A stretch of DNA of 32,496 nucleotides, taken from positions 1 through 32,496 of the IMG/VR virus record IMGVR_UViG_3300012940_000068; one strand, written 5' to 3'. The stretch is from a virus. Taxonomy: Duplodnaviria > Caudoviricetes. How positions within the stretch are numbered: position 1 is the stretch's first letter; the number at the start of each line of letters is the position of its first letter. Of this stretch, positions 3,199-19,198 are shown one piece after another. The translations under genes were made by a program, and so were the position numbers. Below the pieces are notes generated by a model. The model saw nothing but the letters and a program-made list of their open reading frames with translations, was not told the origin of the DNA and ran no database searches.

Positions 3199-3478
3199 GA
3201 TAAGGGAGAAGGTGGTCGGGGCCATCAGGCCAGAGCTCATATCAGGGTATGCCGATGGAGAAATGCGGATCTATCTCGGAAACCGATCACACATCGCAAA
3301 CGCTTGCGCCGATGCCGCCATCGCGGTCGTGCTGTTCGAGATCGATGCCGAGCTGGAGCGGCGGATCGCGGTGCACGAAAAGCAAGCATCGTTCTACGGG
3401 CCTGGTGCGTTGATTGCGCTGAAGTCATTCCGCAAGCACATCCGCGCGCTGGGCGAGGGAGATGGCGATGAAGGCTGA
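3177..3478 (+). repeat. 22-bp perfect direct repeat GGGAGATGGCGATGAAGGCTGA at 3177-3198 and 3457-3478
   Basis: Read directly; each copy carries an RBS, a start codon and the upstream gene's stop codon. Confidence 0.9.
3188..3478 (+). CDS. Hypothetical protein (MKAEIREK..., 96 aa)
   Basis: GGGAG RBS; 11-nt overlap with the upstream gene. Confidence 0.7.
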   Translation: MKAEIREKVVGAIRPELISGYADGEMRIYLGNRSHIANACADAAIAVVLFEIDAELERRIAVHEKQASFYGPGALIALKSFRKHIRALGEGDGDEG

Positions 3479-3713
3479 CCCTATCACGGAACGATTGGCT
3501 GAAGCTATCGCCAACGCCGAAGCCGATGCTGGGTACAACTGGTCATGGGATGAATACACCGGTGAGCATTTCCCCCGGTGGGATGAATTGCCGGACGAAG
3601 ACGATGACTGCGGGCACGATCACTGGGTGCGGGGACGCAACTACTACCGCATGCGGGCAGCGGCTGACTTGGCGGTGATGCGTGAATTGGGAGTGATCCA
3701 TGACGAGCGCTGA
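3468..3713 (+). CDS. Hypothetical acidic protein (MKADPITE..., 81 aa)
   Basis: Starts inside the second repeat copy. Confidence 0.7.
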   Translation: MKADPITERLAEAIANAEADAGYNWSWDEYTGEHFPRWDELPDEDDDCGHDHWVRGRNYYRMRAAADLAVMRELGVIHDER

Positions 3714-4005
3714 ACTGCGGGAACGGATCATGCGGGCCATATTCGATGCCGATTGCACCATCTGGAATGACCACACCGAGGCGTTCGAGGACGACGATCA
3801 TATCCACCTTGGGGCCGAAGCCGATGCCGTGCTCGCCGTCCTCCAGGCATCGCGGGACGAGCAGCGGGCAGAATTCCTCAACTTGAAGGTCAGCCTCGTG
3901 AATGCCGCTCGGCGTGGGGACATGGACCGCGTTTCTGAGATTGAGGAGAAACTGAACGATTGCTTCGACGCGGCGTTCGGCGGGGCGGAGGAGGTGACGG
4001 GGTGA
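3700..4005 (+). CDS. Hypothetical protein (101 aa)
   Basis: GGGAG RBS; overlapping start. Confidence 0.7.
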   Translation: MTSAELRERIMRAIFDADCTIWNDHTEAFEDDDHIHLGAEADAVLAVLQASRDEQRAEFLNLKVSLVNAARRGDMDRVSEIEEKLNDCFDAAFGGAEEVTG

Positions 4006-4262
4006 TGACACACATTAGCATCGTAACGGAACTCCTTCGCGAGTACAGCCAAGGCGCAGATGAGCGCGATATTGCAGAGAAGATCGTTCACCAGCTTATT
4101 CCGCCTGGATCGATCCTTGTGAGTTATCACGTAGCTCGGGAGTTGTATCGGGATATCCAGGAGGGCAGAATCACAAGGGCGCTTTCGACTCTCGAAGACA
4201 TCGCCGAGGCGGGTTATCGGTCAACCGCCACCCCGGACCCGCAGCCGGACGGAGGGGCGTAG
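4005..4262 (+). CDS. Hypothetical protein (MTHISIVT..., 85 aa)
   Basis: TGATG stop/start coupling; GGAGG upstream. Confidence 0.65.
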   Translation: MTHISIVTELLREYSQGADERDIAEKIVHQLIPPGSILVSYHVARELYRDIQEGRITRALSTLEDIAEAGYRSTATPDPQPDGGA

Positions 4263-4264
4263 GG

Positions 4265-4531
4265 ATGGCGGTTTATGCTGATGATCCACGGTGCGTCCGT
4301 TGGACCGCGATTGCCGAGGGTCATATCCACTGCTCGCAGTTGTTCGTATGGTGGGAAGGCGATGACCTACATGCCCGTTGTGAGCATCACGAAAAGGCGA
4401 ATGCCGTCGCACTCTCCCAGGCCCTGCCCGGCAATCGGTTTGCAATCGCGACGTACATTGATGGGGTAAAAGAGAAACGGGACGCGGTGATGAGAAAGCA
4501 CGACCCGTCCGGCACGCGCCGCGGCGGATGA
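4265..4531 (+). CDS. Hypothetical Cys/His-containing protein (88 aa)
   Basis: GGAGG upstream; tight packing. Confidence 0.6.
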   Translation: MAVYADDPRCVRWTAIAEGHIHCSQLFVWWEGDDLHARCEHHEKANAVALSQALPGNRFAIATYIDGVKEKRDAVMRKHDPSGTRRGG

Positions 4532-4550
4532 TGCGGGTGGAGGTGGAGTG

Positions 4551-4778
4551 ATGGAAACTGATGGCAAACGGTACTACTCAATTGAGCCGCTCGGCTATTC
4601 GGTCGAGTACGGGACATCAGGCTCAACAATCCGGCTCGATCACAGTCCAAGTAAGCGCACGCTGACCTTGACACCAAATTTCAATCGAGAACCGTCCGAG
4701 CCAATCGAGATGCGGCTGAGCGAGGAGAACAACGAGATCATCGGGGCGATCCTACAAGACTGGGCAAGGAGTTTGTAA
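4551..4778 (+). CDS. Hypothetical protein (75 aa)
   Basis: GGAGG/GGAG upstream of the ATG. Confidence 0.65.
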   Translation: METDGKRYYSIEPLGYSVEYGTSGSTIRLDHSPSKRTLTLTPNFNREPSEPIEMRLSEENNEIIGAILQDWARSL

Positions 4779-4813
4779 GTGCCGAAGCGCTGATGCCGGC
4801 GCGGGAGGGGGAG

Positions 4814-5020
4814 ATGGGTTCCATTCTGGACAGCATTGGGATATTCGGCGTGGCGATGATCGGCTGCGTCACGATGATTCTCGTTGGCGTCACATGGATG
4901 GTTTTACTCGAGCGAGATCAGCGTTATTGGCGAAGCGAACGAGACAAGAATATCCAACGGCGTCTAGAGCGTGGGGAGATCGACGAACTAGGCGCGAAGT
5001 TCTTACGAGGTAATCGCTAG
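4814..5020 (+). CDS. Small single-pass membrane protein
   Basis: GGAGG RBS; hydrophobic stretch IGIFGVAMIGCVTMILVGVTWMVLL followed by a charged tail. Confidence 0.65.
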   Translation: MGSILDSIGIFGVAMIGCVTMILVGVTWMVLLERDQRYWRSERDKNIQRRLERGEIDELGAKFLRGNR

Positions 5021-5254
5021 ATGCCGTCCCGCGACACCGACTGGGATTGCCTGGCGTGTAAGCGCTGCCTGGGGTGGATCACGTTCGATCGCTTCGAGCG
5101 GGCACACCTCAATTGCTCGCTCGAGGTGACCGGTGTGCAGCAAGCGACTGGGGCGCTGACGCCGTCTCCCTATTGGACGGTTGGCTGTGTCTGCGGGGAG
5201 ACGCGTAACTTCTTTGGGTACGCCGTGCATCTCAAGCTCGCGAACGCGGCATGA
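5021..5254 (+). CDS. Zinc-ribbon protein (W-x-CxxC...CxC), loosely Com-like
   Basis: DWDCLACKRCLG and VGCVCGETRNF; GAGG RBS. Confidence 0.65.
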   Translation: MPSRDTDWDCLACKRCLGWITFDRFERAHLNCSLEVTGVQQATGALTPSPYWTVGCVCGETRNFFGYAVHLKLANAA

Positions 5255-5281
5255 CGTTTTGCGCGAACGAAATACGCCTGA

Positions 5282-5402
5282 TGCTACACTTGTGACATAA
5301 CCGAATGTGGTGGGTTGCCCGCCGGTGCTGCGCTCGTTGGATTCATCGCGGATGAATGTGACGATGCGTGGCTCGGCGGGTTGCTGGTTTAAGTGGGCAG
5401 CG
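5282..5402 (+). promoter_or_regulatory. Putative extended -10 promoter (TGcTACACT) and structured leader of terS
   Basis: TG 5282-5283, TACACT 5285-5290; long imperfect hairpin 5318-5380. Confidence 0.5.
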
Positions 5403-5993
5403 ATGGCGGAGACGAGTCCGGAAAAGCTGAATGATCGGCAGATGGCCTTCGTTGCCGCCTATCTAAACGAGGCTCGCTTCAACGCGACCAAAGCCGCGGA
5501 AATCGCCGGGTACAAGAACGCTCGCCAGAACGGCACCCGGCTATTGTCAAATATTGTCATCAAGGCTGAGATCGATCGCTGGCGGGCAGAAATGAAGCAG
5601 TCGGTCATTGCCGATAGCGTGTATCGCGTCGCACGGATGCGGGAACTCGAACTGAAGTACTTCGCGCTGATTGATGCTCGAGCCGTTGATCTCAAGGATG
5701 AAGCGGCTGGCGGTGAAACTGGGCTCCTTGTTCGGCAAACGAAGCAGATCGGCGGTGGTCCGACAGCCGAGAAGGTTGTTGAATACGCCGCCGATACTGC
5801 GGTCACGCGTGAGATCCGCGAGCTCTACAAGCAGGTCGCCCAGGAACTCGGACAGTGGATCAGCCGGAGTGACAACACTACAAAGATCAGCGTTGAAGCG
5901 GACGAGTTGGCCCAACGCGTTGCCGAGGAGCTTGGCCTTGATAAGGGCGAGGTGCTCGCTGAGGCGCAAGCGATCATCGCGGGTGGACGTTGA
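5403..5993 (+). CDS. terS: Terminase small subunit
   Basis: KLNDRQMAFVAAYL..FNATKAAEIAGY..ARQNGTRLLSN HTH signature (Terminase_2-like); immediately upstream of terL. Confidence 0.9.
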   Translation: MAETSPEKLNDRQMAFVAAYLNEARFNATKAAEIAGYKNARQNGTRLLSNIVIKAEIDRWRAEMKQSVIADSVYRVARMRELELKYFALIDARAVDLKDEAAGGETGLLVRQTKQIGGGPTAEKVVEYAADTAVTREIRELYKQVAQELGQWISRSDNTTKISVEADELAQRVAEELGLDKGEVLAEAQAIIAGGR

Positions 5994-6814
5994 TGGTAGC
6001 CACGATGATCGACGCCATTGGGATCGTAGCCGTGCGTCATCGGCACCGGCGATCCAGTGCGGTCCCCACTCCCGTTGAACTTGCGGAGCGCCTCGGCATC
6101 GAGCTCGATCAGTGGCAACGAGATGCGCTCATGGCGCCGCAGTCAGGGAAACTGCTACTCGCGTCCCGTCAAGCAGGCAAATCGACCACGGCAAGCATCG
6201 ATGTGCTGCACACCGCGCTCTATAAACCGGGGTCGTTGTCCCTCATTCTCTCGCCAAGTGAACGGCAATCCAAGCGACTACTGCGAACGGTGCGGAAGCA
6301 CTATGCCAAGTTGGCCGATGAGTTTCCGGTGCGAACTATGGGACAGCTCAGCATTGAGCTAGAGAGTGGCTCAGAGATTCATGCCCTCCCTGGATCGGAA
6401 GAAACCATTCGTGGATTCTCGGCGGTGAACAAACTCGTGATCGATGAGGCATCGCTCGTTGAAGACGACCTTTACCAATCGGTGCGTCCGATGCTCGCGG
6501 TGTCCGGTGGCGAGATGACCGCCATGACAACCCCGCGTGGCAAGCGGGGCTGGTTCTATCGTGAATACACCGACGGTGGCGCGGATTGGCATCGTGCCCG
6601 TGTTACCGCCTACGACATCCCCCGCATTTCCCGCGCATGGCTCAACGCCGAACGTAAGAAGATCGGCGAGTGGTGGTTCAGCCAGGAATACCTCTGTGAG
6701 TTTGTCGATACCGACGACCAACTCTATCCGACAGACCTGGTCGATGCGGCCGAAAGTGATGACGTTGCGTCATTCGGCATCCCGATGCTGGGAGGTGGGG
6801 GATGGGCGAGTTAA
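5993..6814 (+). CDS. Terminase large subunit, ATPase domain only
   Basis: LDQWQ adenine-binding motif, Walker A ASRQAGKST, Walker B KLVIDEA, motif C TTPRG; ends shortly after FSQEYLCEF. Confidence 0.9.
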   Translation: MVATMIDAIGIVAVRHRHRRSSAVPTPVELAERLGIELDQWQRDALMAPQSGKLLLASRQAGKSTTASIDVLHTALYKPGSLSLILSPSERQSKRLLRTVRKHYAKLADEFPVRTMGQLSIELESGSEIHALPGSEETIRGFSAVNKLVIDEASLVEDDLYQSVRPMLAVSGGEMTAMTTPRGKRGWFYREYTDGGADWHRARVTAYDIPRISRAWLNAERKKIGEWWFSQEYLCEFVDTDDQLYPTDLVDAAESDDVASFGIPMLGGGGWAS

Positions 6815-7479
6815 TGCCGCCATCAACGTACCTGCTCGGACTTGACCTCGGGCAGTCCCAGGACTCCACCGCGCTCATTGCCGCATCGGTGACCGAGAAC
6901 GCGGCTGCCGACCATGAGTACGACGTAGGGCATATTGAGCGCGTCGGGCTTGGAACCCGGTACCCGGAAGTTGTCAAGCACGTGTGCGATGTTGTGGATT
7001 ACCTGCGTCGCCCGTATCACGTGCCGGGCATGCCAAAGGGCATCGAAAAGCGGGCGGATGTGTACCTGATTATTGATTACACCGGCGTCGGTCGACCCGT
7101 TGCCGACATGTTTCTTGATGCCAAGCCCAATTGCAATTTGACACTGATTACGATCACTGGTGGCGGTGCAGTTACGGCGGATCCGACAGGGGGGTGGAGA
7201 GTCCCCAAGCGCGACTTAGCGTCTTCGGTCCAGGTCGTCCTCCAAGACATGCGAGTTCGGTGGGCAAAGGGATTACCGCTAGTTCCTGAGCTCAAGCGTG
7301 AACTCACCGGATTCCGCGTCAAGATCAATGCTCGTGGGCATGACAGCTATGGAGCTGGTGAGGATTGGCGTTCAGCGCCGCACGATGATCTCGTGCTCGC
7401 ACTTGCGATGCTCGTTTGGTATGGGGAAACGAGACTTGTTCGAGGTCCGCTCGCCTGGTTTGTAGGAGACGACGAATGA
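6802..7479 (+). CDS. Terminase large subunit, RNase H-like nuclease domain as a separate gene
   Basis: LLGLDLGQSQDSTA, IIDYTGVGRPVAD and HDDLVLALAM catalytic motifs; own RBS GGAGG at 6791-6795; alternative ATG at 6814 (TAATG coupling). Confidence 0.88.
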   Translation: MGELMPPSTYLLGLDLGQSQDSTALIAASVTENAAADHEYDVGHIERVGLGTRYPEVVKHVCDVVDYLRRPYHVPGMPKGIEKRADVYLIIDYTGVGRPVADMFLDAKPNCNLTLITITGGGAVTADPTGGWRVPKRDLASSVQVVLQDMRVRWAKGLPLVPELKRELTGFRVKINARGHDSYGAGEDWRSAPHDDLVLALAMLVWYGETRLVRGPLAWFVGDDE

Positions 7480-9593
7480 ACCCAATCACGCGGCTCCTAA
7501 CTAGGCTTGGGAAAGGCATGGTCGAATCCACGGGATCCCGGGCATACCCGGTTGGACCAGCGATTGTTGAGCCCTACGAGGAACGGTGGGGACACGACGA
7601 TTCGGCGTATTCGCCGTCGGAATACCTCGATTACATCGCAACATCGAACAACGTCTACACCTGCGTGACGAAGCGGGCGAATGCCATGTCGGCGCTCCCG
7701 ATCAAGGTCTACAAGGGAAAAAAGAAGGATTCGCGGAAAGAAGTCGAGACCGGATCGCTCCGTAATCTGCTCGATAGCGTTAACCCTTGGATGACTTGGG
7801 ATCGGCTGATTAACCTCACAGAGCAATATCTATGCTTATCGGGTGAGGCGTTCTGGTTCCTGGAGCGCGGACGGCGTGGCGATCAGATGCCACAGGAAAT
7901 CTGGCCCGTTCGTCCGGATATGGTGCGCATCGTTCCTGACCCGGTGAACTTCATTCGTGGGTTCCTGCTCTATCCGCAGACTGGCGGCGAGCCGATCGCC
8001 TATACGCCGGATGAAGTGATCTGGTTCCCGTACCCGAACCCGAAAGACCCATATTCCGGGTTGGCGCCACTCGCGGCCGCGCGGCTTGCCGCCGATACCG
8101 CCTCTGCGGCCATGAAGAGCAACTACGGCATCTTCAGCAATGGTACGCGGCTTGGCGGCGTGATCTCCCCCCCGGATAACACGAGCAACATCACGGACGC
8201 GCAGGCGAAGGAGCTCCAACTCCTGTTCAACAAGAAACTTCGCGGACCGGACAAAACGCACGCACTCGCCGTACTTGCCTACGCTGTGAAGTTCCAGGAA
8301 TGGACGATGACGCCGAAGGACGCGGAGTTCCTCGGCGCGCTCGATTTGACTCTGGAAGAGATTGCTCGCGCGTTTGGCATTGCGCCTGACTTGCTCGGCG
8401 GAAGTAAGCGCACCTACCAAAACGCCCCTGAAGCTCGGTACGCATTCTGGGCCGACACGATCATGTCGGAAGCCCGGTTCATCCAAAATGTCATCACCGA
8501 GCGGTTGGTGCCGATGTTTGGCGATGAAGCGGATAGCGTGGAGTTCGATTTCTCTGATGTCGACGCCATGCGCGAGAACGAGGATGCCAAATGGAAGCGC
8601 GAAATGGAGCAGATCAATACCGGGGTGCTCCTGCGCAATGAATGGCGAGCAGACAAGGGCATGCCGGATGTGGAGTGGGGCGATGTCTGGTGGACCTCGT
8701 CGACGATGACCCCGATCTCGAGTGGTGCAATTGATCTCCCCGAATCGACGCAAGCGCCACCGGCTCTAACTGAGCAAGATGGGGTAATCGTCCCCGAGCC
8801 TCGGCATCACGTCCGTGCCGTCTACGGGTCTGACGACCATGCGGCGTTGTGGAAGCGGTATATCCGCCGCATCGACCCGCTCGAACGGAAATTCGGCGAG
8901 ATGTGCGCGGACCTCATGCGCCGGCAAAAGCGAGCGGTGCTCGCCAAGCTCCGGCAACGCTCGGCGCTCTCGGTGCGGGAGGCTGCCGCGGTGTCCGACG
9001 ATCCGTTCGACCTTGCCCGGTGGAACAAGACCTTCCGCGAGACCAGCCGTCCAACCTACCTGTCGATCGTCGAAACCGTCGGGCAAGCGGCGCTTGATGA
9101 CGTAAAGGTGAGCGCCGCGTTCGACGTGCTTGACCCCAACGTCGTGCGGTTCATCGAGCGGTCGTCGCAGCGGTTTGCGCGCGAGGTCAACCAGACCACC
9201 TGGGACAAGCTACGGGCAACGCTCCAAGAGGGCGTGAAATCCGGTGAAAGCATCGACGATCTCGCCGCCCGAGTAGAAGCCACGATGGGTGAGCGCATCC
9301 GCTCCAGCGCGGAGACCATTGCCCGCACGGAAACCATCGCGGCATCGACCGGTGGCACGCTGGAGAGTTGGCGACAGAGCGGCGTTGTGGGTGGAAAAGA
9401 GTGGAATGCGACACTTGATGAACGGTGCCGCGCCAGTCACGTCGAAGCCCACGGCCAGCGAGTCGCGCTCGACGCCAATTTCGAAGTTGGTGGCGCAACC
9501 GGCCCGGGGCCGGGGCAGATGAGTGACCCATCCGAGAGCGTGAATTGCCGGTGTGTGGTGGTGCCGATCCTCGATATCGATTGGGAGGGGTAG
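7476..9593 (+). CDS. HK97-family portal protein fused to a C-terminal MuF/SPP1 gp7-like minor head domain
   Basis: Portal motifs (VYTCVTKRANAMSALP, LSGEAFW, YSGLAPL, FSNG, IARAFGI, NEWRA); C-terminal IARTE..KEW..TLDERCRASH..NCRC MuF motifs; ATGA overlap. Confidence 0.9.
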   Translation: MNPITRLLTRLGKGMVESTGSRAYPVGPAIVEPYEERWGHDDSAYSPSEYLDYIATSNNVYTCVTKRANAMSALPIKVYKGKKKDSRKEVETGSLRNLLDSVNPWMTWDRLINLTEQYLCLSGEAFWFLERGRRGDQMPQEIWPVRPDMVRIVPDPVNFIRGFLLYPQTGGEPIAYTPDEVIWFPYPNPKDPYSGLAPLAAARLAADTASAAMKSNYGIFSNGTRLGGVISPPDNTSNITDAQAKELQLLFNKKLRGPDKTHALAVLAYAVKFQEWTMTPKDAEFLGALDLTLEEIARAFGIAPDLLGGSKRTYQNAPEARYAFWADTIMSEARFIQNVITERLVPMFGDEADSVEFDFSDVDAMRENEDAKWKREMEQINTGVLLRNEWRADKGMPDVEWGDVWWTSSTMTPISSGAIDLPESTQAPPALTEQDGVIVPEPRHHVRAVYGSDDHAALWKRYIRRIDPLERKFGEMCADLMRRQKRAVLAKLRQRSALSVREAAAVSDDPFDLARWNKTFRETSRPTYLSIVETVGQAALDDVKVSAAFDVLDPNVVRFIERSSQRFAREVNQTTWDKLRATLQEGVKSGESIDDLAARVEATMGERIRSSAETIARTETIAASTGGTLESWRQSGVVGGKEWNATLDERCRASHVEAHGQRVALDANFEVGGATGPGPGQMSDPSESVNCRCVVVPILDIDWEG

Positions 9594-9595
9594 CG

Positions 9596-9907
9596 GTGGG
9601 CAAGCTGTACTGCCTGAAAGCCGATATGGGCTATGCCGAACAATTCACCGATTCGACAGCGCTACCCGATGGTGTTGTTGCGGTGTCGGGGAAGTTCGCC
9701 GCCGGTGACACGACCGAGGACGAAACGGTTTACGTGATCTATAGCCGCGGCGATGGGACGAAGCGAGTCTCTATTGGGGATTGGGTCGTCACGTCTCTGA
9801 GTGGGACACGGACCATTTTCAATAACCGGGACTTTCTCAACCTTTTCGTATTGGCGGAAACGATGATTGAGGATATCCAGGCAGCGATGGGAGATGAGGA
9901 GGCGTAA
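9596..9907 (+). CDS. Hypothetical protein (103 aa)
   Basis: GGAGG RBS, GTG start 2 nt after the portal stop. Confidence 0.7.
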   Translation: MGKLYCLKADMGYAEQFTDSTALPDGVVAVSGKFAAGDTTEDETVYVIYSRGDGTKRVSIGDWVVTSLSGTRTIFNNRDFLNLFVLAETMIEDIQAAMGDEEA

Positions 9908-9911
9908 GCTC

Positions 9912-10139
9912 ATGCACTTCATTCACCGCTACGTCACCATCGACATCTACGGGAGACGACTCTGGCAGGAGTGCCGGGTGTGTGGAAAGCAACGAGCATT
10001 CGATTTGCCATCGTCAATGCTGCACAGCGGGAATCACAACACAAGGCCACAAGGGGTGATTGGATCGCCGCCGAGCCCGAATGCGCGACGAGTTGTTACA
10101 CGATCGACAGTGGTGGATCAAAAGGCGGACGCGGCATGA
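9912..10139 (+). CDS. Small His/Cys protein (HxxH...CRVC)
   Basis: GAGGAGG RBS; ATGA overlap with the next gene. Confidence 0.6.
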   Translation: MHFIHRYVTIDIYGRRLWQECRVCGKQRAFDLPSSMLHSGNHNTRPQGVIGSPPSPNARRVVTRSTVVDQKADAA

Positions 10140-10354
10140 CCTTTGCCTCAGCAATACACCAACCAGCTCTCATCGTCACCCGCTCTGGCCGGCAATGGTG
10201 GGTCTGTCCCGAATGCAACAAGACCATCGCCGAAGTGAAGCGTGAATCGATCGTGATCGAGATGCGAAACCGGCGTTTGGTGGTATCGGGGATGGCGTAT
10301 TCGCAGGTCTGCCCCCACTGTCACGCCACGAGTGAGTACCGGCAAGCGGCGTAG
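10136..10354 (+). CDS. Com-like zinc-ribbon protein (72 aa)
   Basis: WVCPECNKTIAE...QVCPHCHATSEY; two CxxC pairs, architecture like phage Mu Com. Confidence 0.7.
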   Translation: MTFASAIHQPALIVTRSGRQWWVCPECNKTIAEVKRESIVIEMRNRRLVVSGMAYSQVCPHCHATSEYRQAA

Positions 10355-10356
10355 TG

Positions 10357-10481
10357 TATAGTGTGATCAAGACATAAGCCCACTCATCGCTGGGCGTTAC
10401 TCCTGAGCGTTCCGAGCGCTGCGATGTGTCGTCAGAGAAGGCGGCGCATCGCAGCGTTTTTGCGTTTCAGGAGTGACCTCA
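10357..10481 (+). promoter_or_regulatory. Leader A: -10 box, hairpin P1 and attenuator upstream of the protease/capsid operon
   Basis: TATAGT 10357-10362; GCCCA-CTCATCGC-TGGGC 10378-10395; homologous to 17708-17829. Confidence 0.75.
10416..10467 (+). terminator. Intrinsic terminator within leader A
   Basis: 18-bp stem (10416-10433/10440-10457, with G-U pairs), loop AGAGAA, followed by TTTTGCGTTT. Confidence 0.85.
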
Positions 10482-11510
10482 ATGCCCGAGTACATGCGGG
10501 GCTATTGCGATCGAGCCGCGGCTGGAACCGGGAAGCCGGGCACCCCGATTCGATTCGTCGCCTCAACCGAGAACGTTGGCCGCGATGGCTTGATCCTCGA
10601 TGCCGATGGCTGGGAGCTCGATAACTTCCGTGCCAATCCCGCGTTTCTCTGGGTCCACGACTACATGGGCGAGCGGATGCCGATCGGCCGCGTGATCAAT
10701 GTGGAAGTCAAAGAGCGGCAGCTCATGGCGGATGTCGAGTTCGACCAGGAAGACGACTTCGCCCTGCAGGTCGAATCCAAATACCGGCGCGGGTTCCTGA
10801 ACGCCGTTTCGGTCGGATGGGACACCAAGGAATTCGCTCCTACCGAAAACCCGAATGTTGCTGGGCGATCAACGCGCCAGGAACTCCTTGATATCTCCGC
10901 TGTCCCGATCCCCGGCGATCCGAAGGCACTCAAGGAGCGCCAGATGCGGGCGCTCAAAGCGCTCGGTACCGAAATCCTCGAACTGGCCGATGGGAGTGAT
11001 GATACGACTCCTCCATCGGCTCAACCAACCAAGCCGACTCCAACCCCTGCACCTGACGCCGCGAGGCTGACCTGGCCCGATACCGCCGCCACGATGGTGG
11101 CCCTGTATCAGCCCTTCAGCCCACGACCGGACGATGAGCGGCGCGCGGAGTACCAGAGGCTCGACCGCGAGTACAGCCGCCACGGCAAGACCTCGCCGGA
11201 GTTCAAAACCGGCGCTGAGCTTGAAGCCCTGTCGCCGGACGACATCCGGGGATTGTTCAGTGCCGGCGAGCCGGAGTTGTTCCCCGAGAAGTTTGCCGCC
11301 ATGGCGAACCGTGCCGGAGCGGTGCTTTCCCAGCGCAATCGATCGGACCTCGATAAGGCCGGATCACTGTTGATCGAAGCCAACGACCTCATCAAGGCCG
11401 TGATCGAACGCGCCCAGAAGGAAGCTGACCAGCAGGACGAGCAAGACACCGAGCGCGCGGCGCTGGCCGCGATCACCCAGTTGCGAGACAAGTTCAAAGG
11501 AGTCGCCTAG
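10482..11510 (+). CDS. HK97-family prohead protease with a C-terminal extension
   Basis: FVASTENVGRDG, FLWVHD, PIGRV, LNAVSVGW, ELLDISAVPIPGDP motifs; CAGGAG RBS. Confidence 0.92.
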   Translation: MPEYMRGYCDRAAAGTGKPGTPIRFVASTENVGRDGLILDADGWELDNFRANPAFLWVHDYMGERMPIGRVINVEVKERQLMADVEFDQEDDFALQVESKYRRGFLNAVSVGWDTKEFAPTENPNVAGRSTRQELLDISAVPIPGDPKALKERQMRALKALGTEILELADGSDDTTPPSAQPTKPTPTPAPDAARLTWPDTAATMVALYQPFSPRPDDERRAEYQRLDREYSRHGKTSPEFKTGAELEALSPDDIRGLFSAGEPELFPEKFAAMANRAGAVLSQRNRSDLDKAGSLLIEANDLIKAVIERAQKEADQQDEQDTERAALAAITQLRDKFKGVA

Positions 11511-11512
11511 TC

Positions 11513-13003
11513 ATGTCCACTACGCAGCAGTTCGAGGAAGCCGTCAAGGATATCGCCGACCAGCTCGAAGCCCTCGGGCAGGCGGTCAATCCGCAGAAGA
11601 TCGAAGAGACGGTGCGCACGGTCTTTGCCGACGTGATCAAGCAGCCGGACTTCCTGCGCAAGATGCGGTTCGGCAGTCCGGAAGAGACCAACCTGATTGC
11701 CGCGAAGTTCCGCCGCCACGGCTTCAACCAGGCGGATATCGAGTTCCTCTACGACATGCAGACCAGCCTCAAGGGGCAGCGAAACGGCGATAACGGCGCG
11801 TATCTCGGACCGTCACAGGAACTTGAGGGCGCGTTCAATGCCGTTTCGGATGCTTACTACCTCACCCAAGAGGAAGTTCGGGCCATCGACAAGCAGGCGA
11901 TCGATAACCTGTTCGCCCGCGTGCCGAAGACTCGGGCGGCACGGAAGTCGTTCTTCGCCGAATACAAACGGGCGACCGGCGCGATGGATACCGCGGAGTC
12001 CGGCTACGGATCGCAGCTCATTGGCGCCCAGTACGTCGGCGATCTGTGGGATGGAGCCCGTGCGGAGTCCCGCATCTTTGCCCTGCTCGATCAGTTCGAA
12101 ATGACAGCGCCGGTCGCGTACCTGCCCGTGGAAGCGGACCTGCCGGAAATGCTCTACGTTGGCGAGTCGACCTCCGCCAGTGCGACCAACTACGACGCCG
12201 TCATGACGGGCTCGAACCGGGTCACCGTCGATGCCAAGAAGCTGATCATCCAGCAGATCTACAGCGGCGAGATGGAAGAGGATTCCATCATTCCATACAT
12301 CCCGTTCTTGCGTCGTCAGGCTGCGCTCGCGCTCGCGCATTACAGCGATAGCCTCGTGCTGAATGGCGACACCACGAATGCGAGCACCGGCAACATCAAC
12401 CTGGATGACGCCGATCCCGCGGATACCAAGCACTACCTTGCCTACGACGGCATTCGCCACGTGGGCCTGGTTGATAACACCGCCAATGGTCTCGATGTTG
12501 CTGGTGCCGTATCGCTGAACACGTACCGCGATCTCCGTGGACTGATGATCGATCGCACCAACCTGTTCGATTGGGGGCACCCGACGAACCGTGACGACCT
12601 GGTCTTCATCACCGATACCGTGACCGGCGACCGCACGGCGCTGCTCGATGAGATCGTGGTTGCGAAGCAGATGCTCGGCGCGAATGCCGATTTGCTCAAC
12701 GGCGAGATTGCCCGCATTCTCGGTCACCCGGTGATCTCGAGCATGGCGATGGGCCTGACCGAAGCCGACGGCAAGATCAGTGCCACACCCGCCAATAACA
12801 CCAAGGGGCAGATTGCCGCGTTCAACCGCCGCGGCTTCAAGGTCGGGATGCGCCGGCGTGTGAAGTTCGAGACCGAGCGCCTCGTTCGCACCGATCAGAC
12901 CGTGCTGTCGTGGAGTCTGCGCATGGGCATGGGGCGCTTCACCGCGACCGGCAACGTTTCGGGCATCGAAAGCGCTGCCGTCGCCTACGACATCTCCCTC
13001 TAG
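11513..13003 (+). CDS. Major capsid protein (HK97 fold)
   Basis: 496 aa after the protease; N-terminal helical delta-like region, YVGE, EMEEDS, VLNGD, ILGHPV motifs. Confidence 0.9.
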   Translation: MSTTQQFEEAVKDIADQLEALGQAVNPQKIEETVRTVFADVIKQPDFLRKMRFGSPEETNLIAAKFRRHGFNQADIEFLYDMQTSLKGQRNGDNGAYLGPSQELEGAFNAVSDAYYLTQEEVRAIDKQAIDNLFARVPKTRAARKSFFAEYKRATGAMDTAESGYGSQLIGAQYVGDLWDGARAESRIFALLDQFEMTAPVAYLPVEADLPEMLYVGESTSASATNYDAVMTGSNRVTVDAKKLIIQQIYSGEMEEDSIIPYIPFLRRQAALALAHYSDSLVLNGDTTNASTGNINLDDADPADTKHYLAYDGIRHVGLVDNTANGLDVAGAVSLNTYRDLRGLMIDRTNLFDWGHPTNRDDLVFITDTVTGDRTALLDEIVVAKQMLGANADLLNGEIARILGHPVISSMAMGLTEADGKISATPANNTKGQIAAFNRRGFKVGMRRRVKFETERLVRTDQTVLSWSLRMGMGRFTATGNVSGIESAAVAYDISL

Positions 13004-13019
13004 TTACGAACGGACTCGT

Positions 13020-13043
13020 GCCCGGCGGGTCATCCCGCCGGGC
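13020..13043 (+). terminator. GC-rich hairpin after the capsid gene (mRNA-stabilising or weak terminator)
   Basis: GCCCGGCGGG-TCAT-CCCGCCGGGC 10-bp stem; no long U tract. Confidence 0.55.
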
Positions 13044-13065
13044 TTCGCCACAAGGATGAGCCGAC

Positions 13066-13491
13066 ATGAGCATGATCACGCGGGATATCAGCAAGGGCCA
13101 ACTCATTCCGCTCGTTTTCGGCCAAGACGCCGTCGCGGCATCGCAGACGGATGTTCAACTCCCGACGGCGGCCGGCGAAGGATCGCAGGCGGTCGACGGC
13201 TACGCCATGCCGTTCGACTACCAGGTCGTGGCGGTCAGCGCTTCACTCTCCGCGGCGGCAACCGCCGGGACACTGAGCATCGGCGCCACGATCAACGGCA
13301 CCGAAGCGGCGGATTCCACATTCGTCGTTACCACTGCCACTAATGCGTATCAACGTGTCTTACGGGGCAAAGCGCGTGGAGCGGCGGGGTCACGCCTGGG
13401 AGCGGAGATCACGACGAATTCCGGGTGGGATGGCACGACATCAGACCTCGTGGTGACGGTATGGGTTATTGCGTCCCTCGACGGCATTTAG
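13066..13491 (+). CDS. Putative capsid decoration/cement protein (beta-rich)
   Basis: Directly after the capsid gene; Ala/Gly/Thr-rich with alternating beta-strand pattern. Confidence 0.6.
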   Translation: MSMITRDISKGQLIPLVFGQDAVAASQTDVQLPTAAGEGSQAVDGYAMPFDYQVVAVSASLSAAATAGTLSIGATINGTEAADSTFVVTTATNAYQRVLRGKARGAAGSRLGAEITTNSGWDGTTSDLVVTVWVIASLDGI

Positions 13492-13500
13492 GAGGCTCCG

Positions 13501-13956
13501 ATGGCACGCTATCTCTTTACCCAGAACTATTCCAGCAGTTATGGTCATGGCCGTGCGGGTGACGAAATCGAGTTCTCGGCTGAAACCGCGCATGCAATCA
13601 ACCGCGACGCGCCAGGCACGCTCAAGATGGTGCGTGAAAAGCAGGACGATAGTGCCAAGCAGGTTGCACAGGCGGTCGATCGCGTTACAGAGCTTGAGGC
13701 CGAAAACGAAGCCCTCAAGACGCGGATTGCGGAACTCGAAGCCGCTACCACCCCGAGTGAAGGCGATGCGTCAGAGCACGTCGGTTCCGGCCCGTTGGGC
13801 GACGGCGACGGTGTCAATCTCGGCACGGCTGCCGTCGAGCCGGACGACGAGGATGACAAGAAAAAGAGGCGGTCTCTTGACGCGCCACCAAGCGACCGCA
13901 TGGTAAAGACGGCATCCCGTCGCGCCTCCAAAACCGCCAAGGACGATCAGGAGTAG
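13501..13956 (+). CDS. Hypothetical head-region protein with coiled coil and charged tail
   Basis: AGGAGG RBS; VTELEAENEALKTRIAELEA heptads. Confidence 0.75.
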   Translation: MARYLFTQNYSSSYGHGRAGDEIEFSAETAHAINRDAPGTLKMVREKQDDSAKQVAQAVDRVTELEAENEALKTRIAELEAATTPSEGDASEHVGSGPLGDGDGVNLGTAAVEPDDEDDKKKRRSLDAPPSDRMVKTASRRASKTAKDDQE

Positions 13957-13958
13957 CC

Positions 13959-14285
13959 ATGATCGCGACGATCGCCGAAACCGAGTCTCTCTCGAGTGTC
14001 GTTGCGCTCGACAACCTCGTCATGGTTGCGATCCAGATGCCGGATGAGTGGGATGCCGCTACCTTGACCTTTCAGGCATCGACAGACGAGCAGGGGCCAT
14101 TTACCGACATGGTCAATGCCTCCGGCGCCGCAATGGAGGCGCAAGCGGCCGCGTCGCAATGGGTAGCGTTCCTGCCGACGGACTTTTGCAGCGTGCGGTA
14201 CCTCAAAATCCGGAGCGGGACAGCAGCGGCCGCGATCGCCCAATCGGCAAACCGTGTCCTGCGCGTTGTCGCGATCACGGTGTAG
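13959..14285 (+). CDS. Hypothetical beta-sandwich virion protein (108 aa)
   Basis: CAGGAG RBS; WDAATLTFQAS..RYLKIRSG pattern. Confidence 0.7.
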   Translation: MIATIAETESLSSVVALDNLVMVAIQMPDEWDAATLTFQASTDEQGPFTDMVNASGAAMEAQAAASQWVAFLPTDFCSVRYLKIRSGTAAAAIAQSANRVLRVVAITV

Positions 14286-14298
14286 GGGGAGGGACACC

Positions 14299-14871
14299 AT
14301 GAGCTTACTCACCTCCCTCATCAGCCCGATCCAGACCCCCACCGACGCCCACATCGCGGCGATCGCGGAGGCGCGGGTGGGGGGCGAAGATCCAACGCCG
14401 TACCCGATCACGCCGGTGTCCGGCGGTTCGATTGCGGCCTGGCCGGGTGGGAATCAGGGCATTTTCGTCAAGTTCCGGCTCGGTCGCGGGCGTCATGCCG
14501 TTGGGCTCCGTGTCCCGGTCGGCACGCCATCGGGCAATGCCAAGGTCGCGCTGTATGCGTCAGATGGTACGACCGCTACACAGATCGCGCTCTCGGCATC
14601 GACGGCACTGACCGCAACGAACGATTTTCAGGAAATCCCCTTTGCGGCGGCGGTCGATCTCGTGACGTTCACGGACTATTACGGGTTTCTTGCTGTGGAT
14701 AACGCCACCGCGACGTTCTACCGGCTGACATTCGGTGCAGGCGGCATCGCGGCCGATCTCGGCTATGCCGTCATCACCAACGTCTTTACGACGCCACCGG
14801 CCACACAAACGGTGTCGGGGCTCACGACTGGTGCCGCCAGCGGCTATACCCCGGTCCTGGCGTTGTACTAG
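14299..14871 (+). CDS. Hypothetical beta-rich virion protein (190 aa)
   Basis: GGAGG RBS; GNAKVALYASDG strand pattern. Confidence 0.7.
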   Translation: MSLLTSLISPIQTPTDAHIAAIAEARVGGEDPTPYPITPVSGGSIAAWPGGNQGIFVKFRLGRGRHAVGLRVPVGTPSGNAKVALYASDGTTATQIALSASTALTATNDFQEIPFAAAVDLVTFTDYYGFLAVDNATATFYRLTFGAGGIAADLGYAVITNVFTTPPATQTVSGLTTGAASGYTPVLALY

Positions 14872-14873
14872 CC

Positions 14874-16490
14874 ATGAGTGATGGTCCGTCCAATGCCCTC
14901 ATCCGCGAGCTCTCCAGGCGGGCGGCACTCATCCCGCAGCAGCGTGGGATCGTGACGCCGAATCCGGGGAGCGTGCGCATCCGCCCATTACCGGGCGTCA
15001 TGGCGGACCCGCCGACCGTGACCACCCCGGCCGGCAACACGGCATCGGCGATTACGACCCTCAACGGCGCGGTCGGGGCCGGTATCGATCTCGCGTCCAC
15101 GATTGGCGATAACGGCACCGCAACCTCCGCCACGAGCACGACGCTCACGCAGACCGGCAAAAATTGGGGGACGGCGAATCAGTACCGCGGCTACGATGTC
15201 ACGATCTGGTCAGGCACCGGGGCCGGGCAAATCCGTACCATCGCCTCGCACACGGCCGATACCCTGACCGTCGATGACCCATGGGACGTGACTCCCGACA
15301 ACACGAGCGTCTACGGCTTCTGGAATGTGCGCAAACACCGCGATTGGTCCTACCGGCACGCCGACATGATCGTGCATATCGCCAACCCGGCCACGTCGGG
15401 CTTTACCACCAACCGGGGTGATGTCAATTCCACCGTGCGGGCCGATACGCTGCCGATCGGGAGTGGCCGGTACTGGATTTGCTTTACCCACTGGGGCGAC
15501 CAATTTGAGATTCGTCACCGGGGCGCGGTCGGCAATCAGTTTCGGATCATGGTTGATAACAACTACGTGCAGTACACCCCGTACGCCTCAACGTCCGGCG
15601 ACAACCTGATCTACCGCACCCGCGTGGACTTCGCCAACGGCGAGACCGATGCCGCCACGCGGGCGACGTTCCGGGCGATGCGCAACATCGTCATCGAGTG
15701 CGCGGCGTCGTTCTCGTTCATGGGGCTGACGATCGGGCCAACGGACTCCGTATGGGCGCCGACCGACCCGACGACGCCAAAAGCGGTGATGATGACCGAC
15801 TCGTACGGCAACACCGGCAGCCTAGCAGTCTTTACCGCGTTCGGCGACACCCTCGCCAAGTTGCTCGGCATTCCGTGGATGCAGATCACCCCGGCGGGCG
15901 GGACCGGCTACGTCGCCACGAACGGCGGGACCTCGCCGACCTTTGTCGAGCGGTATCAAGCCGATATTGTCGATCGCGATCCCGACATCGTGTTCATCTA
16001 CGGCAGCCAGAATGACGGGGGGCTCGCCGGGATTTACACCGCCGCCCGAACCGTTCACGCGGGCGTACGGGCCGGTGTCGGGGCGACCGTCCCGGTCATC
16101 GTGTTCGGGCCATCGCCCGTCACCGGCGGTCCGGGTGCGACCACGATCCTGAGCCGTGACGACAACATGCGGGCCGGTCTCGATTCCCTCGCCGCCGGGG
16201 ACATTAATTTCTACGTGGACATCTTCGGCGGTCCGTATCCGTACTCGGGATCAACGAGCGATTACGTTGGCACCGGGCTGATTCGAGGCTTCGGCATCAA
16301 GAACACGCCGACCCATTCGGGGAACCGTGACGATTACTACGGGGGCACCACGGGCAGCGATAACAGCCATCCGACCCAGGACGGTCATGATGCCTATGCG
16401 TACTTCTACGCTCACGCCTTCTCGGAGTGGGTTGACGCCGGATGCCCGCAGGCGTACTGGCAGCCTGGTCGCGGGCTCGTGGTGGTGTAG
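14874..16490 (+). CDS. SGNH/GDSL hydrolase-domain virion protein with an N-terminal beta module
   Basis: Block I variant MTDSY, block II AGGTG, block III GSQND, block V DNSHP. Confidence 0.8.
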   Translation: MSDGPSNALIRELSRRAALIPQQRGIVTPNPGSVRIRPLPGVMADPPTVTTPAGNTASAITTLNGAVGAGIDLASTIGDNGTATSATSTTLTQTGKNWGTANQYRGYDVTIWSGTGAGQIRTIASHTADTLTVDDPWDVTPDNTSVYGFWNVRKHRDWSYRHADMIVHIANPATSGFTTNRGDVNSTVRADTLPIGSGRYWICFTHWGDQFEIRHRGAVGNQFRIMVDNNYVQYTPYASTSGDNLIYRTRVDFANGETDAATRATFRAMRNIVIECAASFSFMGLTIGPTDSVWAPTDPTTPKAVMMTDSYGNTGSLAVFTAFGDTLAKLLGIPWMQITPAGGTGYVATNGGTSPTFVERYQADIVDRDPDIVFIYGSQNDGGLAGIYTAARTVHAGVRAGVGATVPVIVFGPSPVTGGPGATTILSRDDNMRAGLDSLAAGDINFYVDIFGGPYPYSGSTSDYVGTGLIRGFGIKNTPTHSGNRDDYYGGTTGSDNSHPTQDGHDAYAYFYAHAFSEWVDAGCPQAYWQPGRGLVVV

Positions 16491-16499
16491 GAGGCAGGG

Positions 16500-16868
16500 A
16501 TGGTCGATGCAGTGGTCAACGTTCCATATCGATTCTGGATCATTGATCTTCAAGATCTCGATGGGAATCCAATTGTTGGGGCAACGTGGGACACCTCGGG
16601 CTGCACCAATACCGATGAGGCCGTGATCACCAGTCCAGACAATGACAGCGATTACCTCGTAACCATCACAGCAGCAGCGACGGGAGCGTGGAAATTCAAA
16701 GCGATCCCCAATGACGAACCGTTGCTGATGCAGGCACGCACGATTCAGGTAGGGACCGACTCCGCCGCCGCCCTCCTCGCCGCGCCGGTGGCGGGGTATG
16801 GCGCGGGGACGGTGGGGTACAGCATCGAGGCAACCTTCAAGCGGCCGATCAGGGCAGGTGATGTATGA
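16500..16868 (+). CDS. Hypothetical Ig-like virion protein (122 aa)
   Basis: AGGAGG RBS; beta-rich; ATGA overlap with the next gene. Confidence 0.7.
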   Translation: MVDAVVNVPYRFWIIDLQDLDGNPIVGATWDTSGCTNTDEAVITSPDNDSDYLVTITAAATGAWKFKAIPNDEPLLMQARTIQVGTDSAAALLAAPVAGYGAGTVGYSIEATFKRPIRAGDV

Positions 16869-17698
16869 CGCTCCTCAACACGACCGCGATCGCTAACTTC
16901 AGCCTGCTCACAAGCGGCCAGACCTTCACCCGTACTGCTTCGTCGATTGCGGGTACTGCAATTGCCTGGGATCCAAACTTCACCGACAACGGCGATGGGT
17001 CCTATACCGCAACGTACCTCGTCAACCAGCTTGGGATTTGGCAGTGGGGCGGGGAATCGACCGACGGCACGGTCGTGTCAATCGAGTGGGATGTCACGTC
17101 CGTCAACACGAACTACACGACCCTGAACGACCTCAAGGCGAGGCTCAACCGCGGGGATATCACCGTCACGAACGACGACGCCCGTCTTGAGGCTATCATC
17201 GCGGCTGCCTCGCGCGAAATCGACGGAATGACCAACCGGGTCTTTTACCAACTGCCCAATGAAACTCGGTACTTCACCGCCGACTGTGGCGACTGGCTCG
17301 CGATCGATGATCTCGTCAGCGTGACCAGTATCGCGACCGACGATGGCAGCCGCACCTACGGCACGACGTGGCAGGTGACAGACTACGATCTGGAGCCGTA
17401 TAACGCGGCGTCGAAGCAGTTCCCATACACTAACTTGCACATCGCACCGAATGGACACAATGCATTCCCGCGCACCCGGCGTGGCGTGCGCATTACCGGC
17501 ACCTGGGGCTGGCCCGCCATCCCGTCAGCGGTCACGGAAGCGTGCCTCTTGATCGCGCAGCGGCTTGCCACGCGAAGCAAAGCTCCGTTCGGGGTTGCGG
17601 GCGCGCAGGACGGCACGGCAGTCTATCTCCCGCGTACCGATCCGGATGCACGGGCACTCCTTGAACCGTATCGCCGGTTCGCGGTCGGCGTGATCTAG
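16865..17698 (+). CDS. Head-tail connector (gp6/gp15-like) with an N-terminal Ig-like extension
   Basis: YTTLNDLKARL..DDARLEAIIAAASREIDGMTNRVF..WGWPAIPSAVTEACL..LLEPYRR; N-terminal TDNGDGSYTATY motif. Confidence 0.82.
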   Translation: MTLLNTTAIANFSLLTSGQTFTRTASSIAGTAIAWDPNFTDNGDGSYTATYLVNQLGIWQWGGESTDGTVVSIEWDVTSVNTNYTTLNDLKARLNRGDITVTNDDARLEAIIAAASREIDGMTNRVFYQLPNETRYFTADCGDWLAIDDLVSVTSIATDDGSRTYGTTWQVTDYDLEPYNAASKQFPYTNLHIAPNGHNAFPRTRRGVRITGTWGWPAIPSAVTEACLLIAQRLATRSKAPFGVAGAQDGTAVYLPRTDPDARALLEPYRRFAVGVI

Positions 17699-17707
17699 GG
17701 CATCGGG

Positions 17708-17829
17708 TATACTGACCATAATCAAAGATGACCCACTGATCGCTGGGTAACTCAGGCGCACACACGCCGCGATCGCTTGTCAGAGGAGGCAGGCGATCGC
17801 GGCGTTTTTGTTTTGCGTGAGGACCGGCG
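17708..17829 (+). promoter_or_regulatory. Leader B: -10 box, hairpin P1 and attenuator upstream of the neck/tail operon
   Basis: TATACT 17708-17713; ACCCA-CTGATCGC-TGGGT 17731-17748; homologous to leader A. Confidence 0.75.
17764..17814 (+). terminator. Intrinsic terminator within leader B
   Basis: 18-bp stem (17764-17781/17788-17805), loop AGAGGA, followed by TTTTGTTTT. Confidence 0.87.
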
Positions 17830-18384
17830 ATGGCGCAGGTGGATGCGGAAATCAAGGGATTGGACGAGCTGATTCGCAAGCTCAGTCCTGACCTTGTCGC
17901 TGCTCCGGTTCGCCGGTTTATGGAGCGTTCCGCAATCCTGATCCAGGGCAAGGCGCGGCAAAACGTCAAGAGCGACACCGGTCGCCTCGCCAACTCCATT
18001 GCGTACGAAATCCATGGTGCCCACGTCCCGTTGTGGGCGACGGTCGGAACGAATCTCGACTATGCCGCTGCACGTGAGTTCCAACGCCCACCCGGCAAGA
18101 TGCCGCCGCCAGGCGCGCTGGTTCCGTGGATGAATCACGTGGGCATTCCGCTCTCCGAGTACCACGGTTCCACGGTTGGGCTCTCGCCGGATGCGCGCGT
18201 TGGGAATAGCGCTTATTCCCCAATCGAATACCTGATCGCCCGCAAGATCGGCCGCGAGGGATCACCCGGTCATCCCTATCTCCGCCCAGCGCTCAAGGAC
18301 TCCGAGGGGCAGATCACCGGGCGATTGCTCGAGACATGTGCTCGTGAGATCGAAGCCGCAGCGAGCCAGGGGGTGTCGGCGTAA
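17830..18384 (+). CDS. HK97 gp10-like neck/tail-completion protein
   Basis: EIKGLDELIRKL..DTGRLANSI..VGTNLDYAA..HPYLRPAL. Confidence 0.85.
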   Translation: MAQVDAEIKGLDELIRKLSPDLVAAPVRRFMERSAILIQGKARQNVKSDTGRLANSIAYEIHGAHVPLWATVGTNLDYAAAREFQRPPGKMPPPGALVPWMNHVGIPLSEYHGSTVGLSPDARVGNSAYSPIEYLIARKIGREGSPGHPYLRPALKDSEGQITGRLLETCAREIEAAASQGVSA

Positions 18385-18851
18385 TGGCGCTCGATGCGGT
18401 CATCACCACCATCCAGGACGTCGTGCGGCAGGTGCCGGGCATTGGAGCAAGCCCCGATAACCCACCGTCCCAGGAACTCCGTGACCCCGTACTGCTGGTC
18501 TACCCCGGTGACGCGACGAGCTGGCTGGGTACCTCCGTCGGCGCCGGTGGCGTGCCCAACCGCTGGGACTTCGAAACGATCATGATCGATGTCTTTGTCT
18601 ACGTCGCGGATGAACTGGAGATCGCGTTTCAGCGCATCCGTCCGTTTGCCGATCCGGTGCGGAAAGCACTGTTCGACGCGTTCGCCCGGGACAAGTTCGG
18701 CGGCACCGTTGCCGGACTCGGTGATGTCACTAATCGAAGCGCGATCCGGCCATACCGCCGCTCATCGATGTCGTTCATGGCAGGCGGCATCAACGTGCTC
18801 GGGTACCACCACGAGCTCGATGTGACGTACCAGGAGGTGATCAGCCGGTGA
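18384..18851 (+). CDS. Putative tail terminator protein
   Basis: Position between the neck and tail tube genes, size 155 aa, TAATG coupling. Confidence 0.6.
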   Translation: MALDAVITTIQDVVRQVPGIGASPDNPPSQELRDPVLLVYPGDATSWLGTSVGAGGVPNRWDFETIMIDVFVYVADELEIAFQRIRPFADPVRKALFDAFARDKFGGTVAGLGDVTNRSAIRPYRRSSMSFMAGGINVLGYHHELDVTYQEVISR

Positions 18852-19198
18852 CCGATCCCAAGCGCACGTGGCGCGGGCGCCAGCTCTACCAGTGCGACCA
18901 GTGCCCATACAACACGATCCACGAACGGCACTACCAGGAGCATCTACGACTCGACCATCCCGAACCGAAGCCGCACCCATTGCGGCCGGTAGCAGCCCAG
19001 GAGGACGAACCCAATGGCGCGAGTGACCCACACGGCGCAGAAGAAAGCGACCGCGAGCCCGCTGGACGGGGTAGTCCTGACGGAGACCGCGGCGGACGTG
19101 ACGAACAAGGAACAGGTGAAGTGGACGGGGAGAGAAATCATCGTCGCCCACAACACCGGCGCCAGCGCGCGAACGGTAACGATCACGAGCACGGCTGA
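18848..19198 (+). CDS. C2H2 zinc-finger protein; C-terminus overlaps the next gene by 185 nt
   Basis: YQCDQCPYNTIHERHYQEHLRLDH; CAGGAGG RBS; GTGA overlap. Confidence 0.6.
   Translation: MTDPKRTWRGRQLYQCDQCPYNTIHERHYQEHLRLDHPEPKPHPLRPVAAQEDEPNGASDPHGAEESDREPAGRGSPDGDRGGRDEQGTGEVDGERNHRRPQHRRQRANGNDHEHG

Follow-up and report, generated by a model that had tools for sequence, protein, structure and literature searches.

Two homologous RNA leaders precede the prohead protease gene and a neck gene in the virus record IMGVR_UViG_3300012940_000068 (Duplodnaviria; Caudoviricetes), of which the whole 32.5-kb stretch was analysed and is referred to here as the window. Comparison of these leaders with homologs from other phages makes it very probable that they represent a real, conserved and uncatalogued two-state RNA, in which an intrinsic-terminator-like hairpin (the OFF fold) competes with a pseudoknot that takes up the 5' arm of the same hairpin (the ON fold). 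The best reading is a protein-triggered attenuation leader that is not listed in Rfam. In the full mechanism, for which a probability of about 0.57 is estimated, the leader would be a default-off attenuator that is opened when a 72-aa zinc-ribbon protein stabilizes the pseudoknot; we infer the trigger, the direction and the promoters. The parts of both copies and the adjoining genes are as follows.

10136-10354, + strand: 72-aa zinc-ribbon gene (CxxC-x31-CxxC) of an unnamed family, candidate regulator; ends two bases before the first hexamer
10357-10362, + strand: -10-like hexamer TATAGT of copy 1, putative promoter; 15 nt to P1
10378-10395, + strand: P1 hairpin of copy 1; loop 10383-10390, of which bases 10385-10390 are the 5' strand of the pseudoknot
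10396-10410, + strand: linker of copy 1 with ACTC (10399-10402); predicted to pair with the ribosome-binding site (RBS) region in the read-through OFF fold (0 of 200 shuffles)
10406-10420, + strand: P2 hairpin of copy 1, whose 3' strand forms the base of the terminator 5' arm; putative protein-binding site
10421-10426, + strand: switching strand of copy 1; partners are the P1 loop or the terminator 3' arm at 10447-10452
10414-10459, + strand: intrinsic-terminator-like hairpin of copy 1; 7-bp tip 10427-10446, T5 at 10457-10461
10469-10484, + strand: RBS AGGAG (10469-10473) and protease start codon, copy 1
10482-11510, + strand: prohead protease gene (ATG 10482), followed by the major head gene
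17708-17713, + strand: -10-like hexamer TATACT of copy 2, putative promoter; 17 nt to P1 and 9 nt past the head-tail adaptor stop
17731-17748, + strand: P1 hairpin of copy 2; loop bases 17738-17743 are the 5' strand of the pseudoknot
17750-17753, + strand: ACTC of copy 2
17755-17768, + strand: P2 hairpin of copy 2
17769-17774, + strand: switching strand of copy 2; partners are the P1 loop or 17795-17800
17764-17805, + strand: intrinsic-terminator-like hairpin of copy 2; 7-bp tip 17775-17794, T5 at 17805-17809
17819-17832, + strand: RBS GAGGA (17819-17823) and neck start codon, which the outer stem of the OFF fold is predicted to cover (10 of 200 shuffles)
17830-18384, + strand: Neck1/HK97-gp10-like gene (ATG 17830), first of the tail block

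Competing folds of the leaders

In both copies, the 5' arm of the terminator is built of three modules: the 3' strand of P2, six bases that are complementary to the P1 loop, and the 7-bp tip hairpin. The P1 loop and P2 take bases of this arm, and therefore the pseudoknot fold and the terminator are mutually exclusive. Over eight distinct leaders (the two window copies and six in other phages), the loop:arm helix is Watson-Crick paired at 47 of 48 positions with seven different loop sequences, whereas the identical arm bases within the terminator form 37 Watson-Crick and 5 G-U pairs and leave 6 of 48 unpaired. The arm thus pairs better with the loop than within the terminator, and the loop is not a mere repeat of the terminator 3' strand. 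In the six-leader alignment A7, all 36 loop:arm cells are Watson-Crick paired and five of the six pairs show two-sided changes. The whole ON structure is 95% paired in this alignment, with 0 of 500 shuffles and with slid controls at 30-61%; the sequences are few and partly related, so the shuffle counts are not probabilities. Two later leaders, which stood outside model building, pair at 6/6 and 5/6 positions. The null fraction of the helix per leader is 0.008-0.025 in seven leaders and 0.20 in L304. The helix always ends one base before the P1 3' strand, and the loops mostly fit the arms of other leaders at 2-4 of 6 positions.

P1 is paired in every filled cell of A7, and is inverted in L286, while the three core pairs of P2 are invariant within a conserved GAGCGC...CGCC. 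The terminator covaries as well (93% paired) and is kept in 8/8 leaders, with 5-8 T in the 9-nt tail (6-8 in seven of them). Only 16 alignment columns are invariant, nearly all in stems or in the U tract. In addition, an outer stem over the RBS and start codon beats shuffles in six of the eight leaders (0, 10, 7, 2, 20 and 9 of 200). Comparison of the leaders establishes P1, P2, the 6-bp loop:arm helix, the terminator and their mutual exclusion, with P2 not proven by covariation. The leaders thus combine a terminator and a mutually exclusive alternative helix, both conserved by covariation, as is characteristic of an attenuator. The regulated attenuation suggested in the first-pass annotation, which was made from the DNA letters without database searches, is in this way supported by a concrete antiterminator fold that would compete with the terminator.

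A short first loop, a 6-bp second stem and no second loop give a geometry that is suited to an H-type pseudoknot. The OFF folds were computed at -35 to -53 kcal/mol and the ON cores at -17 to -23.5 kcal/mol, to which the loop:arm duplex adds -6 to -10 kcal/mol with pseudoknot terms left out. The OFF fold is thus about 10-20 kcal/mol more stable, so that the default would be OFF and the ON fold would need a ligand or a kinetic trap.

On their sequences, the two window leaders are true paralogues. Their local alignment scores 56, whereas 300 shuffles reached no more than 24 and the rest of the window no more than 25; no third copy was found within the window. Both fold with unusual stability (z = -8.4 for copy 1 and -6.9 for copy 2, with 0 of 200 shuffles equally stable), and their terminators, with 18 and 20 pairs, are the longest of 15 terminator-like sites in positions 1-19000, the next having 8. 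Between the copies, 6 of 23 pairs are changed on both sides and none is broken, in agreement with the compensatory changes reported earlier. Two U-G pairs are kept between them, which favours an RNA of the + strand, and at the one position where the two loops differ, the arm partner differs accordingly. In a set of 131 distinct head-tail adaptor ends, the next gene lies within 20 nt in 117, at 21-59 nt in 4 and at 60 nt or more in 1, and 9 were unscorable; copy 2 is thus a lineage-specific insertion.

The shared architecture described in the first-pass annotation (hexamer, P1, ACTC, terminator, U tract and RBS) was found in place in both copies, and the loop:arm pairing, P2, the RBS-covering outer stem and the zinc-ribbon gene are new beyond it. 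Two of its claims stand in part. The -10 hexamers of the proposed promoters are present, but a consensus -35 was not found and 0 sigma-70 sites were predicted; a TAnnnT-type hexamer lies upstream of most homologous leaders. The leaders were also said to carry the RBS of the first structural gene, which is true of copy 2 at the head of the tail block but not of copy 1, which precedes the protease with terminase and portal upstream and hence not the first gene of the module. CATAA occurs 3-10 bases past the -10-like hexamer at window positions 5285, 10357 and 17708 and in L177, L284, L286 and L287, perhaps as a start-site mark.

Homologous leaders and the zinc-ribbon gene

Structural-protein searches yielded 223 loci besides the window's own contig. 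A covariance model built from the two copies with the pseudoknot left out (R2) was run on 152 of these and gave one clear match, L111 (E 1.5e-6), which is flanked by a zinc gene of the same family and by a protease gene. Codon patterns for the zinc protein gave 13 IMG/VR stretches, 3 of them by chance, and in L286, L287 and L293 found in this way a leader lies directly behind the zinc gene. A further model built from six leaders (R3) was applied to zinc-gene records searched whole, and identified a second leader copy in G405 (L305) and one leader that is common to G408 and G412. The homologs with covariation in related phages that had been looked for on the basis of the first-pass annotation are thus present, and four of the six outside leaders (L111, L286, L287 and L293) were found blind to the loop:arm pairing. 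A leader is present in 5/9 zinc-gene records searched whole, the L111 record being outside this count. A protease follows the leader in window copy 1, L111, L287 and L305, with a weak match in L304. A terminase small subunit follows in L293 and the neck gene in window copy 2, and a weak Rz-like match, possibly a lysis gene, lies downstream of the L286 leader.

A match in G410 (E = 0.004) was rejected on inspection, as were two matches obtained when R3 was run on 151 genomes from the phylum of G001, both plain terminators without a pseudoknot. No leader was obtained with an exact 16-mer scan of IMG/VR (29 matches, 0 with a terminator), a gapped pattern from the two copies (26 matches) or single-protein scans with the protease and neck proteins. 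A structure-descriptor scan of 4.7 Mb gave 2 chance matches without a terminator and missed L111. Over 401 genomes, the zinc profile gave 4 weak matches, 0 with a leader, and a sequence pattern matched at 20 places in 18 genomes, of which none was convincing as a leader. The INPHARED phages gave 0 DNA matches and no credible protein match, and the sequencing runs listed as matches comprised one DNA run, possibly the source, and no RNA run.

About 30 short proteins are related to the zinc protein, in a family of about 70 aa. Its predicted model is all-beta, with a predicted local distance difference test (pLDDT) score of 81.5. Fold searches gave no PDB match at E<=0.001 (best Z 2.8), and small uncharacterised phage zinc proteins at template-modelling (TM) scores of 0.56-0.64. 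Every phage with a leader encodes this family, usually directly upstream, and most of these phages were reached through the zinc gene. Among the structural-protein loci, L111 alone has a zinc-family gene and alone has a leader, and 0/63 loci with portal and protease or capsid matches carry a zinc-family gene. The complete G405, which encodes an integrase and a repressor, has two leaders with a separate zinc gene in front of each; copy 2 of the window has no zinc gene beside it. The zinc ribbon is probably the trigger of the leader switch; it is the best candidate because L111 is the sole structural-protein locus with both and because G405 duplicates both.

Two other cysteine-rich open reading frames (ORFs) of the window lie apart from this gene. 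After ORF 5021-5254, an extended -10-like site at 5285 and a long hairpin without a U tract precede the terminase small subunit (window 5021-5400); this ORF is alignable to the zinc-ribbon alignment A6 over 21 columns at most. A third small CxxC...CxxC ORF of 52 aa is located at 32300-32458, at the record end, and has weak similarity to A6 (E 0.086).

Proposed mechanism and alternative explanations

In the proposed mechanism, the polymerase would start near the hexamer, P1 and P2 would fold first, and the loop would then capture the arm. Without help, the terminator would displace P2 and the loop:arm pairing, giving an OFF state of P1 plus an 18-20 bp terminator with its U tract; on read-through, the outer stem would also cover the RBS and start codon. 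A bound factor, with the zinc ribbon as candidate and P2 (GAGCGC...CGCC) as its putative binding site, would hold the ON fold of P1, pseudoknot, P2 and 7-bp tip until the U tract is passed. The ON elements fill the whole 5' arm, so that the U-tract-side stem could not form and the RBS would be free. Copy 2 would be served in trans. The switch may silence these genes in the lysogen or early in infection and then allow coordinated late expression. The odds are about even that this is a new class of late-gene control, in which a zinc ribbon recognizes the RNA in its pseudoknotted form and releases two locks together (the terminator and the hidden ribosome site), the cassette was duplicated before separate virion operons, and one 72-residue protein times the whole of assembly with no need for Q, N or a late sigma factor.

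To our knowledge, late-gene switching in temperate phages beyond the lambdoid and Firmicutes models is mostly unknown, and the 95-nt RNA and the 72-aa protein form a testable, named candidate pair. If the mechanism is true, the leader would be a naturally occurring pseudoknot antiterminator that is strongly biased to OFF, and could enter Rfam as a new RNA family. The unannotated zinc-ribbon family would gain a function, and the pair could serve in synthetic designs as a compact switch from protein to RNA.

Among known systems, BglG/LicT-RAT and ANTAR are protein-dependent RNA antiterminators in which the protein stabilizes a weaker fold that overlaps the 5' arm of a terminator. The same would hold here, but with an unrelated protein fold, an H-type pseudoknot with a hairpin in loop 3, and no Rfam match. 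According to PMC6483171, Com of phage Mu is a small zinc finger that binds a GAG(N)2CC RNA hairpin beside a translation-inhibition structure. The leaders resemble Com/mom in several respects: a small four-cysteine phage zinc protein is encoded immediately before the structured leader, a small hairpin adjoins an inhibitory structure, the OFF fold would cover the RBS, and the first P2 half, GAGCGC, is similar to the GAG(N)2CC core. They differ in the 31 residues between the cysteine pairs, in having a terminator and pseudoknot rather than a translation block alone, and in targeting virion genes with several copies per genome. For the window protein, PF10122 (Com) did not appear in the top 25 Pfam rows, which extended to E 0.057, and for 31 family members it was missing from the best 25 of 127 families; no curated NCBIfam cut-off was reached by the window protein. 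The system would work like Mu Com, but judging from these protein searches and from the lack of the exact RNA motif, it is not a member of the Com/mom type. Simpler relatives occur in the same pool of phages, where two bipartite GAG(N)2CC hairpins that match the Com SELEX (systematic evolution of ligands by exponential enrichment) motif overlap terminators in L207 (245-331 and 11134-11195), and one such bipartite hairpin overlaps a terminator near 881 in L290, behind a short Com-like zinc finger.

Several points weigh against the zinc-triggered attenuator. Only eight distinct leaders are known, two pairs of which are paralogues within one phage, and five of the six outside records were reached via the zinc gene, so that L111 is the only independent test of the association. 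L111 has no clear promoter, and its zinc gene stops inside the P1 loop. In G408 and G412 an unrelated ORF lies between the zinc gene and the leader. Four of the nine zinc-gene records, each 17-35% complete, have no leader, and in L284, L297 and L280 a -10-like hexamer stands behind the zinc gene without a leader, which equally fits a DNA-level activator. The closest relative, L177, has a different, third type of leader and no zinc-family gene in the part examined. GAG(N)2CC or CC(N)2-3GAG is absent from both window leader bodies, with only the copy 2 RBS fitting; a degenerate half-site of the GAG(N)2CC type occurs in 7/8 leaders, and that in copy 2 P2 is the weakest. As for the RNA, the P2 core never varies and covariation is thus no proof of P2, the U tract of L293 is weak, and the outer stems of L286 and L287 are not above shuffles (125 and 116 of 200). 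Covariation does not distinguish a pseudoknot with intact P1 from an antiterminator helix with P1 open, and ViennaRNA, which cannot score pseudoknots, predicts the P1-open helix for nascent copy 2.

It is unlikely, though still worth weighing, that the two-state RNA has another trigger, namely a host metabolite or ion, as in a riboswitch, or another phage protein, with the zinc ribbon acting on DNA or polymerase at the promoter after its gene. The compact P1/pseudoknot/P2/tip fold with its A-C or A-U closing pair is aptamer-like, and the zinc genes trailed by -10-like hexamers that lack a -35, even where no leader follows, together with the leaderless zinc-gene records, would fit such a trigger. 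Most metabolite aptamers differ, however, in not having so few invariant unpaired bases; in addition, the downstream genes are virion genes and G405 duplicates gene and leader together. In the pseudoknot riboswitches and ribozymes (preQ1-II, guanidine-IV, fluoride, ZTP and pistol), a hairpin loop pairs with the downstream strand of a terminator or RBS helix. The present leaders differ from these in matching no Rfam 15 family, whether at gathering score or at E up to 10, and in their little invariant loop sequence and phage virion context.

A less likely explanation is an opposite polarity or level of control, in which the protein keeps P1 or the OFF fold in place and thereby turns the late genes off, or in which control is mainly translational via the RBS-covering stem, as in Mu Com/mom. 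P1 competes with the open antiterminator helix, the outer stem covers the RBS and start in 6/8 leaders, and L293 combines its poor U tract with a strong RBS-covering stem (2/200 shuffles). The OFF fold is, however, already ahead by 10-20 kcal/mol and a repressor would therefore add little; 7/8 tails have 6-8 T in 9 nt, and P1 is variable in sequence while the P2 region is conserved.

It is improbable that the hairpins are ordinary promoter-proximal terminators released by a processive antiterminator of the lambda Q/N type, or a source of short terminated RNAs acting in trans, with an incidental loop:arm match. In lambda pR'-tR' with Q, N/boxB and HK022 put, a promoter, a short leader and a terminator precede the late genes. 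This layout is the same as that found here, and the relatives L177 and L207 have it without the pseudoknot. The leader described here differs in holding its own alternative fold against one terminator, and the 47/48 loop:arm pairs, in fixed register over seven loop sequences and better kept than the terminator pairs, argue against an incidental match. No Q or N family member was found among 51 window ORFs (the contig being incomplete) or among 44 of 60 ORFs of the complete G405.

The last alternative takes P1 for a DNA operator (CCCA-N8-TGGG) located past the promoter, with terminators that just end upstream operons. It could draw on the 13 identical bases in a promoter spacer near the L081 protease gene, but is largely refuted by covariation and very improbable: P1 and loop sequences vary among homologues while pairing and U-G pairs are kept, and a plain terminator behind the adaptor, which is coupled to the next gene in 117/131 relatives, would cut the operon.

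Database comparison and other features of the window

The suggestion that the RNA family is undescribed agrees with a cmscan against Rfam 15, which gave 0 matches at gathering score in the window, chance rows for microRNA, small nucleolar RNA and ctRNA lying far below threshold, and 0 at E<=1 in L286, L287 and L293. This test covers LOOT, pistol, preQ1, guanidine and those Weinberg 2017 phage motifs held there. No description of the motif was found among the papers listed; the main text of PMC5737381, in its available part, is without such a motif, its supplement and subscription papers being outside this coverage.

The window contains a siphovirus-type module in the order terminase, portal, protease, major head, head-tail adaptor, neck, tail tube, chaperones and tape measure. 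No integrase was found among the 51 window ORFs, and the record looks partial. The terminase large subunit is split over two adjoining ORFs with the ATPase and nuclease domains (5990-7479), and a GC-rich inverted repeat without a U tract follows the major head gene (13013-13045).

Some observations were made in related phages. L177, the closest relative (protease 48%, tail tube 69%), has promoter-leader-terminator units at 1506-1590, 5814-5930 and 12087-12200, before terminase, protease and tail tube; a GCCACCGGGC core, which might pair with the arm of the terminator, is common to two of them. The stretch of L081 at 1160-1200, with its 13 bases identical to the copy 2 P1 loop and 3' strand, lies in the -35/-10 spacer upstream of the protease region, possibly by chance. 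In L111, endonuclease-like ORFs (5848-6531 and 10598-11095) are inserted next to the zinc gene and where the head-tail adaptor meets the neck gene.

In the window, a low-GC insert (24593-27395) separates the tape measure from the later tail genes. It holds two reverse-strand ORFs, one of them DUF4236/TM2, and a toxin-antitoxin-like pair of DUF4258 and a zinc finger. A -10-like site at 27483 stands before the next tail block, without a leader.

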